Notes under the pieces: generated by a model
Seen by the model: only the letters and a program-made list of their open reading frames with translations
What the model was told of the DNA's origin: nothing
The model's database searches: none
Shown here: positions 12,298 to 17,383 of the stretch, piece by piece
Numbering within the stretch: position 1 is the stretch's first letter
Layout: each line of letters opens with the position of its first letter
Translations under genes and position numbers: made by a program
DNA from: a virus
Taxonomy: Duplodnaviria > Heunggongvirae > Uroviricota > Caudoviricetes
Virus record (IMG/VR): IMGVR_UViG_2667527588_000007
Location: 1 to 41,084 of that record
Reading direction: 5' to 3' (one strand)
DNA length: 41,084 nt

Positions 12298-13293
12298 GTG
12301 ACCGTGAGAGCACTACTGACCCCTGAAATTGCCCCGCGTATGGGGATCGTATTGTTCAGACCAGGTTCAGAGCTGATGCCCCTGTTTATGCAGGGGCGTG
12401 TCCTGCTGGAGCCTGAGCCGGAACGTTATTCATCTTTCCCCAGTGGTGCCGTTCCGGCGGCATCACAACCGCTGGCGGATGATCCTGCCGTTCGGGCCGT
12501 GTTCCGTAATGAGGCAGTGATCCGTCGTGCTGGTGGCGTGGAATGTCTTGAAAGCTGGTTACTTCGTGAAAAAGGCTGCCAGTGGCCTCATTCCGACTGG
12601 CACAGCGAGAACATGACCACAATGCGACACGCGCCGGGCGCGATCCGTCTGTGCTGGCACTGCGATAACCAGCTGCGCGATCAGTTCACGGAACGGCTGG
12701 AATCAATGGCAACGGATAACTGTGCCCGCTGGGTGTTGTCTGTTGTGCGTCGGGATCTCGGTTTTGATGACAGTCACGTTGTGACAATGCCGGAACTGTG
12801 CTGGTGGCTGGTTCGTAATGATCTGGCGGATGCCTTACCGGAAAGCGCAGCCCGTAAGGCACTGAGATTACCGAAGCCTGTTGTGCCGTCTGTCACCCGG
12901 GAAAGTGACCTTGTGCCTTCGGTTCCAGCCACCAGCATCATGCAGGATAAAGCGAAAAAGGTGCTGGCGCTGAAAGTGGAGCCGGAGTCGCCGGAGTCTT
13001 TTATGTTACGCCCCAAACGTCGCCGCTGGGTTAATGAAAAGTACACGCGCTGGGTTAAGACACAGCCGTGTGCATGTTGTGGAAAGCCTGCTGATGATCC
13101 CCACCACCTGATAGGCCACGGTCAGGGTGGAATGGGTACAAAAGCGCATGACCTTTTTGTGTTGCCTTTGTGCAGAAAGCATCACGACGAGCTGCATGCG
13201 GATACCGTGGCATTTGAAGAGAAGTATGGTTCCCAGCTGGAGCTGATATTTCGTTTTATCGATCGTGCGCTGGCAATAGGCGTACTGGCGTAA
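12298..13293 (+). CDS. DUF968-family phage protein (C-terminal Cys/His cluster)
   Basis: C-terminal CACCGKPADDPHHLIGHGQGGMGTKAHDLFVLPLCRKHHDELH, recalled as DUF968 (YdfU-type prophage proteins); GTG start after GAGGTG. Confidence 0.6.
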   Translation: MTVRALLTPEIAPRMGIVLFRPGSELMPLFMQGRVLLEPEPERYSSFPSGAVPAASQPLADDPAVRAVFRNEAVIRRAGGVECLESWLLREKGCQWPHSDWHSENMTTMRHAPGAIRLCWHCDNQLRDQFTERLESMATDNCARWVLSVVRRDLGFDDSHVVTMPELCWWLVRNDLADALPESAARKALRLPKPVVPSVTRESDLVPSVPATSIMQDKAKKVLALKVEPESPESFMLRPKRRRWVNEKYTRWVKTQPCACCGKPADDPHHLIGHGQGGMGTKAHDLFVLPLCRKHHDELHADTVAFEEKYGSQLELIFRFIDRALAIGVLA

Positions 13294-13306: not shown

Positions 13307-14059
13307 ATGAACCTTGAAGCCTTACCGAAATATTACTCCCCGAAATCTCCAAAACTGAGCGATGACGCCCCGGCGACAGGCTCTGGTGGTTTAACGATTA
13401 CGGATGTGATGGCTGCGCAGGGGATGGTGCAGTCGAAAGCACCGCTTGGGTTTGCCTTATTCCTGGCAAAAGTTGGTGTTCAGGATCCTCAGTTTGCGAT
13501 TGAAGGTCTGCTCAATTACGCGATGGCACTGGATAACCCGACATTGAATAAATTGAGTGAAGAAACCCGGCTACAGATCATTCCTTACCTTGTGAATTTT
13601 GCCTTTGCTGATTATTCCAGGTCTGCGGCAAGTAAGGCTCGCTGTGAGCATTGTGCTGGTACTGGATTTCATAATGTATTGCGCGAAGTGGTGAAACACT
13701 CCAGAAGCGGGGAGTCTGTTATCAAGGAAGAGTGGGTGAAGGAACTATGTCAGCATTGTCATGGTAAGGGAGAAGTCAGCACAGCGTGCAGAGGGTGTAA
13801 GGGTAAAGGTATTGTCCTGGATGAAAAAAGAACCCGGCTTCATGGTACGCCTGTTTATAAGATTTGTGGGCGTTGCAATGGAAAACGGTTTAGTCGTTTA
13901 CCAACCACACTGGCGCGGCATCATGTCCAGAAACTGGTACCAGACCTGACGGATTATCAGTGGTACAAAGGATATGCAGATGTCATTGATAAACTGGTTA
14001 CAAAGTGCTGGCAGGAGGAATCTTACGCTGAAGCACAATTGAGAAAGGTGACAAGATAA
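13307..14059 (+). CDS. Q: late-gene antitermination protein Q
   Basis: 250 aa with CxxC...CxxC zinc-finger region (CEHCAGTG ... CQHCHGKG ... CRGCKGKG); positioned immediately upstream of late promoter and lysis genes. Confidence 0.75.
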   Translation: MNLEALPKYYSPKSPKLSDDAPATGSGGLTITDVMAAQGMVQSKAPLGFALFLAKVGVQDPQFAIEGLLNYAMALDNPTLNKLSEETRLQIIPYLVNFAFADYSRSAASKARCEHCAGTGFHNVLREVVKHSRSGESVIKEEWVKELCQHCHGKGEVSTACRGCKGKGIVLDEKRTRLHGTPVYKICGRCNGKRFSRLPTTLARHHVQKLVPDLTDYQWYKGYADVIDKLVTKCWQEESYAEAQLRKVTR

Positions 14060-14090
14060 GTGATCTTCGCCGAAAATGGTGACATCATGC

Positions 14091-14119: not shown

Positions 14120-14167
14120 TTTCTCAACGATGGGCTTTATGTATCTGCTGTTGATAACCTTCAAGAA

Positions 14168-14190
14168 CTCGCCATTGAGCGGGTTTTTTA
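14168..14190 (+). terminator. candidate tR'-like terminator
   Basis: Short hairpin CTCGCC-ATTGA-GCGGG followed by TTTTTTATT. Confidence 0.35.
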
Positions 14191-14261
14191 TTGTGTAAAA
14201 ACAGAATGACGGTATTAATTAGTAATATAATTATTCGACCATACAACTAGGGGTCGAAAAA

Positions 14262-15047
14262 ATGTATGTTTTTGAGTTAATCAAGCCAGGCAGTAATCTT
14301 AAGTTTGAAAACAGAGAGTTAGAATGGACGTTTAATAACTTATTATCCCATTTAGAAACTGCATTTTATGATGCTAATGTAGCATTAAATTTATTCGAAC
14401 AGGAAAGAACTAAGAATAACAGTAAATTCGATAATATTTCTCAGACATGGCAAGCTGATGTACAGAAACGACAAGCACTGGAAATGCTGGTTCGTAAAGA
14501 GTTTGGTTATCAACCTTATGAATATTCAGAACAGGTTTTTTCAGAGGTCGAGCTACGTCTAAAAAGAGAAAAATGGAATAACGGTGAATATCCGTTGGCT
14601 CATCAACACAGATTGATCTTCTTACATGCAAAATCATTTCTCTACGCTTTGGATGCTATTGATAAATTTTTAAAGGTAATTTCAAAAGAAAATGGCGCGC
14701 CAGAGAACATTAAAAAATTGCATGAACAGCTTTCTAAAGACTTTCCGGATTTAAGAAAGGTAAGGAATTCAGCTCAACACATGGAAGACAGAGTTCGTGG
14801 GCTTGGTGCAGAGAAAGAACCAAAGCCAATAAAACTCAAACCTGTAAATAATATTCATGTTGTTGCACCTCAGGGGGCATTGATGTTGAATAACTTATTC
14901 GGAACTAAATTTGGGTGCACTATGGCTGATGGCTATTATGGTGAAGTAGATATTTCGACAGAGTCTTTGGCAAAGTTGCAAAATTTAATCCAAAAAGTTT
15001 TTAATTCCTTCAGTTGGGAAGGACCAAAGCAACACCTTCCCCGATAA
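14262..15047 (+). CDS. hypothetical protein with HEPN-like RNxxxH motif (candidate abortive-infection/defence moron)
   Basis: 261 aa, AT-rich, all-helical composition; motif RNSAQH fits HEPN R-x4-H; own TATAAT -10 (14226-14231) and own terminator (15065-15097); located between Q and holin. Confidence 0.6.
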   Translation: MYVFELIKPGSNLKFENRELEWTFNNLLSHLETAFYDANVALNLFEQERTKNNSKFDNISQTWQADVQKRQALEMLVRKEFGYQPYEYSEQVFSEVELRLKREKWNNGEYPLAHQHRLIFLHAKSFLYALDAIDKFLKVISKENGAPENIKKLHEQLSKDFPDLRKVRNSAQHMEDRVRGLGAEKEPKPIKLKPVNNIHVVAPQGALMLNNLFGTKFGCTMADGYYGEVDISTESLAKLQNLIQKVFNSFSWEGPKQHLPR

Positions 15048-15064
15048 CATTTTCTTTTTTATTG

Positions 15065-15097
15065 AAAGCCGCCAAATAATTGGCGGCTTTTTTATTT
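15065..15097 (+). terminator. strong intrinsic terminator after moron
   Basis: GCCGCC-AAATAATT-GGCGGC hairpin followed by TTTTTTATTT. Confidence 0.8.
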
Positions 15098-15136: not shown

Positions 15137-15463
15137 ATGCCTCATAACCCAAATACCTGGCTGGACTTGGTCCAGAGCTGGTGGCGTGGAGACACACCGC
15201 TGGGCGCAGTGATTATGTCGATTGTTATGGCTGGCTTGCGCATTGCATATTTTGGCGGTGGTGGGGGCTGGAAACGAAAAACACTCGAGATTTTGCTCTG
15301 TGGTGCTCTGACGCTGACTTTTGCATCCGCTCTTGAGTATGTCGGATGGCCTAAATCTCTTTCTGTTGCCATTGGTGGTGGCGTTGGGTTGATCGGTGTC
15401 GATGCTATTCGTGGGGCTGCAATGAGTGTAATCGGTAATAAGTTTGGTGGCTCTAAGGAGTAA
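15137..15463 (+). CDS. holin
   Basis: 108 aa from ATG at 15137 (GAGGTGAG RBS); hydrophobic Gly-rich TM segments; immediately upstream of endolysin; track start at 15080 lies inside the terminator hairpin. Confidence 0.75.
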   Translation: MPHNPNTWLDLVQSWWRGDTPLGAVIMSIVMAGLRIAYFGGGGGWKRKTLEILLCGALTLTFASALEYVGWPKSLSVAIGGGVGLIGVDAIRGAAMSVIGNKFGGSKE

Positions 15464-15466
15464 TTT

Positions 15467-15943
15467 ATGCAGGTACTAAATTCCCAGCGTAAAGCTTTCC
15501 TTGATATGGTGGCTTGGTCAGAAGGAACGGATAACGGACGACAACCGACACGTAACCACGGTTATGACGTTATTGTCGGTGGTGAACTCTTCACTGATTA
15601 CTCCGATCACCCTCGCAAACTTGTCACGCTAAACCCGAAACTCAAGTCAACAGCCGCCGGACGTTACCAGCTTCTTTCACGCTGGTGGGATGCTTACCGT
15701 AAACAGCTTGGCCTGAAAGATTTTTCTCCAGAAAGCCAGGACGCTGTAGCTCTGCAGCAGATTAAAGAGCGTGGCGCTTTACCGATGATTGACCGCGGCA
15801 ATATTCGTCAGGCAATCGACCGTTGCAGCAATATCTGGGCGTCGTTACCAGGTGCAGGTTACGGTCAGTATGAACATAAAATCGGCGACCTGATTGCCCG
15901 ATTTAAAGAGGCTGGTGGGGTAGTAAATGAAGCTGAGATATAA
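15467..15943 (+). CDS. R: endolysin, lambda R-type lytic transglycosylase
   Basis: 158 aa; near-colinear with lambda R as recalled (NSQRKAFLDMVAWSEGTDNGRQPTRNHGYDVIVGGELFTDYSDHPRK...); AGGAG RBS. Confidence 0.9.
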   Translation: MQVLNSQRKAFLDMVAWSEGTDNGRQPTRNHGYDVIVGGELFTDYSDHPRKLVTLNPKLKSTAAGRYQLLSRWWDAYRKQLGLKDFSPESQDAVALQQIKERGALPMIDRGNIRQAIDRCSNIWASLPGAGYGQYEHKIGDLIARFKEAGGVVNEAEI

Positions 15944-16530: not shown

Positions 16531-16905
16531 TTAAAGACTATTTAGGAGACTCTGAATAATAGGCCATAAAGTTAATGTGTTTGCACCAGCTGAGTAAAAT
16601 CGCTCCATCAGTTGTAGAGGTGTTGATGACTGATTAAACTTGATATCATTTAAAATGTCGTATATTTCTTGTAGCTTCTCTGCACCAAGTTTATCGTTAA
16701 TTTCACTTAAGTTATTTTGTATGGCGATTTCTGCTTCTTTTATAAGCCGAACTGTTTCTGCTGAGTAATGAATATTGTTGGAAAGAAAAGTATTAGCTGA
16801 ATCAATAATTTCATAACCAACATCAGCACCAAATGATTTGTTTCCAATTATTTTGATGTTTTCGCATCCCTCAATGCGATAAGCAACGGTTTTCTTTTCA
16901 CTCAT
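16531..16905 (-). CDS. hypothetical protein (AT-rich minus-strand moron)
   Basis: 124-aa ORF antisense to the late operon, flanked by AT-rich intergenic DNA; weak AGGT RBS. Confidence 0.55.
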   Translation of the reverse strand: MSEKKTVAYRIEGCENIKIIGNKSFGADVGYEIIDSANTFLSNNIHYSAETVRLIKEAEIAIQNNLSEINDKLGAEKLQEIYDILNDIKFNQSSTPLQLMERFYSAGANTLTLWPIIQSLLNSL

Positions 16906-17032: not shown

Positions 17033-17383
17033 ATGCCAGCACTGATACCTAGAGCCTGCCGTGTTCGCGGCTGCCACCATACCACTACTGACCCGTCAGG
17101 CTATTGTGAAAGCCATAAAAGCGAAGGCTGGAAGCAATACAAGCCAGGCCAGTCCCGTCATCAGCGCGGCTACGGTTCGAAGTGGGACAGTATCCGCGCG
17201 CGCGTCCTGAAGCGTGACAAAGGTTTATGTCAGTTATGTCTGCGTGCCGGTGTGGTGCGTGAAGCTAAAACCGTTGACCACATCATCCCTAAAGCGCATG
17301 GCGGCACCGATGCAGACAGTAATCTGCAGAGCCTGTGCTGGCCGTGCCATAAGACGAAGACGGCCCGTGAACGGCTAAAGTGA
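17033..17383 (+). CDS. HNH endonuclease (packaging-associated)
   Basis: 116 aa; Cys/His motif (CHHT ... CESHKS ... DHIIPKAHGGTDADSNLQSLCWPCHKTK); immediately upstream of terminase small subunit. Confidence 0.85.
   Translation: MPALIPRACRVRGCHHTTTDPSGYCESHKSEGWKQYKPGQSRHQRGYGSKWDSIRARVLKRDKGLCQLCLRAGVVREAKTVDHIIPKAHGGTDADSNLQSLCWPCHKTKTARERLK

Follow-up and report, generated by a model that had tools for sequence, protein, structure and literature searches.

An uncurated protein family with a conserved R-N-x3-H motif, carried as one-gene cargo between the Q and holin genes of a prophage: a putative stand-alone HEPN-type ribonuclease

What is a solitary, AT-rich gene doing between the late antiterminator gene and the lysis genes of a prophage? 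The viral record IMGVR_UViG_2667527588_000007 of IMG/VR, whose 41,084 nucleotides (nt) are referred to here as the window, contains such a gene: an open reading frame (ORF) at 14262-15047 that encodes a protein of 261 amino acids (aa) and lies between a Q-type antiterminator gene and a holin gene. The slot from Q to the holin gene S is the one that stx occupies in Stx phages. An initial annotation, made from the DNA sequence without database searches, described the product as a HEPN-motif ribonuclease (RNase) and the gene as a self-contained piece of cargo, equipped with a promoter and a terminator of its own, that might protect the host from other phages without the help of a partner gene.

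In this study we followed up this description by comparing the protein with its homologues, modeling its structure, delimiting the cargo and surveying the genomic contexts of the family. The analysis establishes that the gene forms a cassette, that its product has a conserved motif and a helical layout, that there is no partner gene and that the gene is found in mobile contexts. The 261-aa protein is most likely a divergent member of the HEPN superfamily, that is, a metal-independent endoribonuclease working alone, and on balance the family probably represents a new, uncurated group of stand-alone HEPN-type RNases that moves as one-gene cargo. The observation underlying the initial annotation proved accurate, and its HEPN and anti-phage interpretation is plausible and supported in part; identification by profile searches was negative, and fold searches gave generic matches.

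The conserved motif and the predicted structure

The only match of the query in Pfam, PADLOC, NCBIfam and PHROGs was phrog_5322, a family of unknown function. Its homologues form 375 clusters at 90% identity in a word-indexed search and 979 clusters at 50% identity in an exhaustive hidden Markov model search (E ≤ 1e-3). The members listed are nearly all 250-270 aa long, and the homologues listed in the word-indexed search were without annotation in all cases (120/120). Their hosts are Gamma- and Betaproteobacteria, some Alphaproteobacteria, and Desulfuromonadales and Campylobacterales known from metagenome-assembled genomes, while viruses of Marinitoga (Thermotogota) carry a 200-aa version with 24-28% identity. 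The family is new and uncurated; single-gene HEPN proteins of abortive infection (Abi) and cargo in the Q-S slot are already established concepts. Three features are distinctive of the family: a hairpin insertion, a beta subdomain after the motif and a strong tendency to be inserted between Q and the lysis genes. The protein-level features discussed in this section are as follows; E denotes the expectation value, pLDDT the predicted local distance difference test score and pTM the predicted template modeling score.

14262-15047, + strand: 261-aa ORF of the phrog_5322 family, putative HEPN-type RNase (ATG at 14262; phrog_5322, E = 5e-140; AlphaFold2 pLDDT 91.9, pTM 0.85)
14763-14792, + strand: R168-N169-S-A-Q-H173-M-E175-D176-R177, putative catalytic motif (family conservation)
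14652-14666, + strand: D131-x3-K135, within the helix assigned as core helix 2 and a candidate for the second, acidic HEPN motif (family conservation)
14400-14558, + strand: inserted helical hairpin, residues ~47-99 (alignment of the query with P0270 and P0271; the minimal Marinitoga homologue has no such segment)
14802-15044, + strand: residues 181-261, beta-rich subdomain after the motif, then C-terminal helix 233-249, the assigned core helix 4 (DSSP of both models)

The HEPN proposal started from the string RNSAQH, which was taken as the R-x4-H signature in its RN-x3-H form. It comprises residues 168-173 (nt 14763-14780). Its occurrence in a single sequence is uninformative, as R-x4-H arose by chance in 33% of shuffles of the 261-aa protein and a second, unconserved copy is found at residues 117-122; it is meaningful because it is invariant across the family. 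Among 273 family sequences, R168 and H173 were each retained in 269, and the sequences without one or the other are truncated or degenerate. Residue 169 is N or D in 271/273 (N in 237, D in 34), residue 175 is E or D in 270/273 and R177 is present in 265/273, with the triplet E175-D176-R177 near-invariant. Residues 166-177 constitute the most conserved 12-mer of the family, with an entropy of 1.06 bits versus a mean of 2.19. The proteins of Marinitoga viruses retain the motif as well (FPNL+YVRNSIAH); the fit to the RN-x3-H form and its preservation in orthologues thus stood up to comparison. D131, in turn, was conserved in 260/273 sequences and K or R at position 135 in 253/273, and the Marinitoga equivalent reads LDMCVK.

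According to Anantharaman et al. 2013 (PMC3710099), HEPN proteins share a conserved R-x4-6-H in which R is followed by a polar residue, in most cases N, D or H. At the sequence level, the family motif, consisting of R, N or D, three further residues and H, agrees with this rule. The local context is KVRNSAQH in the query, EIRNVCAHH in an Abi_2 protein encoded next to a family member and LRHQHLAH in an AbiU2 protein in a corresponding position.

We next consider the predicted structures. The AlphaFold2 model of the query, computed from a 37-sequence alignment, consists of short N-terminal strands, helices 18-81, 89-106, 112-142, 149-160 and 164-172/174-178, a beta-rich part (181-230) and helix 233-249, and it ends with a strand; its helix break falls exactly at H173. 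The conserved block TMADGxYGEVD occupies residues 220-230. The model of the Marinitoga protein (pLDDT 88.6, pTM 0.83) has a cleaner core, with helices 18-48, 56-87, 91-104 and 108-116/118-122, a beta hairpin and helix 182-199, and places RNSIAH at 112-117. Because the Marinitoga homologue aligns to residues 1-46 of the query and then from ~100 onward, residues ~47-99 are regarded as an insertion.

According to the published survey of the superfamily (PMC3710099), the HEPN fold is a four-helix up-down bundle in which helices 2 and 3 are often separated by additional elements; the motif lies at the end of helix 3 or the start of the loop to helix 4, where the structure is often distorted; helix 2 bears a conserved acidic residue, often within E-x3-[KR]; and Csx1 has a beta hairpin directly after the motif. 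The helical layout of both models fits this template, a suggestive agreement that does not amount to proof. Mapped in this way, core helix 1 would be residues 18-46, after which a family-specific helical hairpin (47-106) would be inserted, and core helix 2 would be residues 112-142, bearing D131-x3-K135 and followed by an extra short helix (149-160). Core helix 3 would be residues 164-178, ending in R168-N169-x3-H173-x-E-D-R, with the beta subdomain (181-230) inserted right after the motif and residues 233-249 forming core helix 4. By analogy with characterized HEPN RNases, the active site would be formed by two paired protomers and RNA would be cleaved by H173 together with R168, while the beta subdomain and the hairpin may serve in gating or sensing. 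The HEPN fold, dimerization, RNase chemistry, a trigger, an advantage for the host and transcription in the lysogen are the inferred parts of this model.

Several results weigh against the assignment to HEPN. Profile searches, one of the checks proposed along with the initial annotation, were negative: Pfam searches with 37 and then, at E ≤ 10, with 149 members of the family gave no HEPN family match, PADLOC and NCBIfam gave no match for the query, sequence-profile searches of the PDB with family profiles returned no HEPN chain, and a comparison of the family with an AbiU2 profile of 41 sequences by hhalign gave a probability of 0.3%. Likewise, hhalign against adjacent bona fide HEPN proteins, used as single sequences, gave no signal, and an attempted bridge via the Marinitoga virus homologue, which has only 3 relatives, produced no Pfam match. 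The other proposed check, structure prediction, gave a divided answer: the secondary-structure layout fits the HEPN template, but the top hits of the fold searches were generic four-helix bundles, with no discrimination for HEPN, and Foldseek returned no match at E < 0.1. The most specific recurrent match of the fold searches was 3JRT (Vpc_cass2), which is listed as an 'integron cassette HEPN' (PMC3710099) and was placed in the KNTase_C/HEPN clan by the authors of the structure. In addition, the pattern [DE]x3[KR] is of low specificity, with 11 matches in the query, and both the grouping of D131, R168 and H173 in space and the geometry of a dimer are predictions. Finally, the searchable literature contained nothing on the protein accession or the PHROG identifier and no experiment on any member of the family.

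How far these negatives reach depends on the superfamily itself. HEPN alignments outside the conserved motifs are unreliable for families without solved structures (PMC3710099), and because HEPN families are highly divergent, the negative profile searches lower the case for HEPN but do not abolish it. Since no match exceeded the thresholds of Pfam (Abi_2, HEPN_AbiU2, HEPN_AbiV, Abi_C and others) or PADLOC, the family stands outside any curated HEPN defence family. Another identification, with the Bxe_C0808 family described as 'in operon with AbiU2' (PMC3710099, Table 1), was considered and is unlikely, AbiU2 being adjacent in 1/67 loci; this comparison was by description only. The negative searches would also suit a helical-bundle protein with a beta subdomain that does not belong to HEPN at all and uses R-N-x3-H-x-E-D-R for binding or for chemistry unrelated to RNA cleavage. 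We regard this as unlikely: the motif follows HEPN grammar exactly, no other segment of the family is as conserved and it is located as HEPN motifs are; moreover, the family lives on mobile elements, as HEPN Abi proteins do.

The cargo cassette and its expression

The gene for the putative HEPN-type RNase lies in a well-delimited segment of the window, the features of which are listed below (z, z-score relative to shuffled sequences).

13307-14059, + strand: Q-type late antiterminator, left neighbour (PF03589 Antiterm, E = 1e-53; antitermination protein in the annotation of near-identical prophages)
14048-14077, + strand: promoter-like site across the end of Q, a candidate for a pR'-like late promoter (GTGACA-18-GAAAAT; agreement with the consensus only, 9/12 matches)
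14163-14194, + strand: intrinsic terminator just 3' of Q, tR'-like, left cassette boundary (10-bp stem and T-run; -11 kcal/mol, z = -2.4)
14190-15084, + strand: swapped cargo cassette (moron), 895 bp, of low G+C content (GC), missing from phage SfV
14226-14231, + strand: TATAAT hexamer, possible -10 element of a putative autonomous promoter (letters present)
15064-15097, + strand: strong intrinsic terminator between cargo and holin, right cassette boundary (stem at 15064-15091 and T-run)
15137-15463, + strand: holin of the lambda S family, right neighbour (PF05106, E = 9e-25; 'phage holin, lambda family' in RefSeq)
15467-15943, + strand: endolysin (phrog_90 endolysin, E = 2.5e-63; GH104 in RefSeq)

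A spanin gene follows the endolysin gene. The same order is given by the RefSeq annotation of an SfV-like myovirus prophage of Escherichia coli that is 97-100% identical to the window and in which the ORF is a 'hypothetical protein' (WP_000289222). The exact cassette was found in 22 of 5426 complete E. coli genomes. The ORF has a Shine-Dalgarno sequence, GGGG, at 14250-14253, 8 nt upstream of its start. As described at the outset, it is AT-rich and situated between Q and the holin: its GC is ~0.35 versus ~0.52 in the flanks, and along the window the values are 0.31-0.39 from 14150 to 15050 and 0.47-0.58 on both sides.

The boundaries of the cassette were determined by comparison with SfV. The alignment runs through Q with 95% similarity, ends at 14189, at the end of the post-Q terminator, and restarts with 90% similarity at 15085, inside the stem of the downstream terminator. 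At the same place between Q and the holin, SfV (U82619, 1510-2945) has orf47 and orf48, the latter a DNA methyltransferase in RefSeq, followed by a terminator of its own, and its authors annotate the same post-Q element as a terminator. Because the similarity to SfV breaks at both edges and SfV holds other cargo between them, 14190-15084 is an exchangeable cargo unit, as had been proposed. Apart from the ORF, it has room for 72 nt upstream and 37 nt downstream. The foreign composition, the discrete boundaries between backbone genes and the terminator of its own are those of a moron. The junction with SfV within the terminator stem suggests from the sequence that terminators may act as recombination boundaries in the swapping of cargo.

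The claim of a strong terminator belonging to the gene was likewise borne out. The element between cargo and holin has a 12-bp stem with -18.7 kcal/mol (z = -5.6), and 0/200 shuffles folded equally well. Moreover, a terminator was found 3' of the gene in 5/5 independent insertions between Q and the holin, with unrelated sequences, and in 21/50 lineages versus 67/569 control ORFs, some of which are spurious (odds ratio 5.4, p = 4e-7).

The promoter that the initial annotation assigned to the gene fared less well. The hexamer is present at 14226-14231 and is one of only 7 TATAAT on the + strand of the window, but at spacings of 16-18 bp at most 2/6 positions match a -35 element, there is no TG extension and a consensus promoter scan did not call the site. 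The lone TATAAT and the insulating terminator nevertheless make expression in the lysogen from an own promoter plausible. The candidate late promoter offers another route. The post-Q terminator follows ~90-115 nt downstream of the promoter-like site, and the cassette begins directly after this terminator. The arrangement resembles that of pR', 6S RNA and tR' in lambda. Because it is downstream of this candidate promoter and terminator pair, the cargo gene will be transcribed together with the lysis genes once Q acts.

These elements also allow a bolder reading, which we consider a long shot. The family might be a new HEPN lineage that works autonomously and unites sensor and effector in one protein, the beta subdomain being inserted directly after the catalytic motif, with an RNase that stays silent in the lysogen and is fired by Q antitermination. 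The gene would then constitute a late-switch-triggered suicide or exclusion device, and its preference for the slot would be functional. The firing could accompany induction, or it could occur in trans, if a lambdoid phage that superinfects the lysogen brings a compatible Q. To our knowledge, such wiring has been described for no defence gene.

Genomic contexts and the question of a partner

Placement between Q and the lysis genes is not limited to the window. It was also found in Klebsiella, Enterobacter, Citrobacter and a second lineage of E. coli; the neighbouring genes there represent three different Q families and several types of holin and endolysin. Among IMG/VR loci, 40/49 lie between Q and lysis genes, in a sample that is pattern-limited and redundant. 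In Andreprevotia a member lies between tail genes, and in a Marinitoga virus it comes after the tape-measure gene.

Outside these phage contexts, the family is found on several other mobile elements and as isolated genes. In Vibrio parahaemolyticus, a member is the sole ORF of an integron cassette with attC-type repeats on either side; this chromosomal integron array (L019 1-9500) has 12 attC-type repeats and contains cassettes for HEPN_AbiV, a glyoxalase, acetyltransferases and PNPOx besides that of the family member. Just beyond the array lie a group II intron reverse transcriptase gene and an SMC/AAA gene. On an island in Pseudomonas, the member is located between HEPN_AbiU2 and an AAA_21 and RloB pair; on Rep3 plasmids of Acinetobacter, it adjoins Abi_2 and RelE/HTH; on an integrase/VapE island in Aeromonas, a weak SIR2_2 match is nearby; and in an islet in Limnobacter, it adjoins PIN/PhD. 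The Chromobacterium member is solitary, in metabolic surroundings between a phosphotransferase system operon and a regulator gene. A census of 131 neighbours in 24 further species recorded housekeeping genes plus a few methylases, AAA_21 proteins and helicases.

Three aspects of these data count against a host-protective role. Many loci have ordinary housekeeping neighbours; the neighbour census being too heterogeneous, we make no claim of general defence-island enrichment. No convincing sigma-70 promoter was found upstream of the gene in the five Q-holin loci scanned, where promoter-like calls did not exceed the shuffle expectation. Finally, phage copies are always sense-oriented inside late operons, which fits a late function in the service of the phage equally well.

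The last aspect leads to the view that the protein is a HEPN-like RNase acting in the lytic cycle, expressed as a late gene only after Q antitermination and used, for instance, for shut-off of host RNA, for transcript processing or against co-resident elements. The constant co-orientation, the frequent Q-lysis position in the viral loci, spread over at least 5 unrelated lambdoid backgrounds, the copies among tail genes and after the tape-measure gene, and the position downstream of a pR'-like promoter and terminator with no consensus promoter found for the gene itself all agree with it. Such a function would make no sense, however, on Rep3 plasmids, in an integron cassette, in chromosomal islets or in solitary genes, where the family also occurs; and an AT-rich, terminator-insulated cassette is typical of morons expressed in the lysogen, in a slot that is interchangeable with the methyltransferase of SfV. 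We therefore give this view a small share of the probability, and one-gene cargo encoding a stand-alone HEPN-type RNase is the reading that we retain.

Whether this RNase has a partner was examined in a census of 67 loci, which were reduced to 38 lineages at 80% identity and in which neighbours within 2 kb and ORFs of at least 60 aa were considered. No neighbour family was present in more than 5/38 lineages, and those that recurred were lambdoid Q, holin and endolysin genes. Together with the single-gene integron cassette, this result confirmed that the gene has no obvious partner. An arrangement of type III, with an RNA antitoxin, was also considered and rejected, as the cassette has no tandem repeats and no Rfam families.

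These data bear on the possibility that the protein acts as a toxin in an addiction or toxin-antitoxin module that stabilizes the mobile element instead of acting on phages; the antitoxin, either an RNA or a small protein, would have escaped recognition. HEPN toxins usually have antitoxins (MNT, RnlB), some plasmids and islets carry members of the family next to RelE/HTH and PIN/PhD pairs, and small unannotated ORFs flank some members, namely antisense ORFs of 51-86 aa in Klebsiella and a 53-aa ORF in Aeromonas. Against this, no neighbouring ORF of at least 60 aa is conserved beyond 5/38 lineages, the integron cassette has the family ORF alone between two attC sites, and the cassette of the window has neither tandem repeats nor Rfam matches and leaves just 72 nt upstream and 37 nt downstream of its ORF. 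We consider a module of this kind improbable.

Some loci contain additional genes close to the homologue. In Klebsiella prophages, the antisense ORF (51-86 aa) is apparently hydrophobic and lies just upstream of the homologue, within the conserved flank of the cassette; it is missing from the window and could be another moron or a regulator. The three examples are as follows.

L001 7653-7895, - strand: small ORF upstream of the homologue
L002 7634-7894, - strand: small ORF upstream of the homologue
L004 7739-7894, - strand: small ORF upstream of the homologue

In one Citrobacter prophage, the homologue is separated from the holin by an insertion with a gene for a HicB-like antitoxin and an ORF of 60 aa (L028 8020-8653, - strand); given this insertion, the slot can stack several cargo units. 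Directly downstream of the homologue, unannotated, lineage-specific genes are found in Pseudomonas (311 aa, L013 8971-9906) and Limnobacter (188 aa, L020 7851-8417), neither of which had a match in Pfam or PADLOC.

Relation to known systems and other genes of the window

Among known proteins, AbiD/AbiF (Abi_2 in Pfam), AbiU2, AbiV and AbiJ are closest in character, being likewise stand-alone, mostly helical and ~200-340 aa in length. They share with the family an R-[NH]-x3-5-H block in a similar local context and an occurrence on plasmids, in prophages and in integron cassettes, and in three taxa the two kinds of gene are physically adjacent. Unlike these proteins, the family has a helical hairpin inserted behind helix 1, and its motif is followed by a conserved beta subdomain; no sequence relationship is detectable. 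Esos, a HEPN-like protein encoded by a cassette of the chromosomal integron of V. cholerae, was shown to defend against phage; its phenotype and architecture, compared by description only, are those predicted for the phrog_5322 family. By analogy with AbiD/F, AbiU2, AbiV, AbiJ and Esos, the protein would function in abortive infection or exclusion: a one-gene cargo unit, carried on prophages, plasmids, islands and integron cassettes, would protect its carrier through triggered RNA cleavage, either by abortive infection or by the exclusion of competing phages. HepT-MntA and RnlA-RnlB differ in possessing a cognate antitoxin gene, whereas the family is without MNT, RnlB or any other conserved partner and has no DUF86 or RnlA match in Pfam.

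With regard to location, the closest counterparts are stx of Stx phages and the orf48 methyltransferase gene of SfV, which are likewise situated between the late promoter and terminator on one side and the holin on the other, and also have a foreign composition and a terminator of their own. The payload differs, being a putative RNase here and a eukaryote-directed toxin (stx) or a methylase (SfV) there.

If the preferred reading is true, about a thousand clusters of 'hypothetical proteins' across Proteobacteria would form a new family of stand-alone HEPN RNases that is currently missed by the annotation of Pfam, NCBIfam, PADLOC and PHROG. Its carriers include prophages of E. coli, Klebsiella, Enterobacter and Citrobacter, in which it would be a compact single-gene anti-phage candidate, and the Q-to-holin slot, best known for Shiga toxin, would also exchange defence or toxin cargo. 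The family would further offer a simple system, with one gene and three predicted catalytic residues, for studying the control of a HEPN nuclease that has no antitoxin. These points are relevant to phage therapy against hosts that carry the gene and to annotation pipelines.

Other genes of the window deserve a brief description. A DUF968/HNHc-like protein is encoded just upstream of Q (12298-13293), and a separate HNH endonuclease gene (17033-17383) adjoins that of the small terminase subunit; both are typical of this phage group and unrelated to the cargo ORF. Between the spanin gene and the HNH and terminase genes lies a second AT-rich ORF (16531-16905, - strand; 124 aa; GC ~0.31-0.33), which had no match in Pfam, PHROG or PADLOC. 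In its place, the near-identical prophage of E. coli GTEN_24 has iss, a bor-like lipoprotein gene, and this position is therefore a second slot for cargo exchange.

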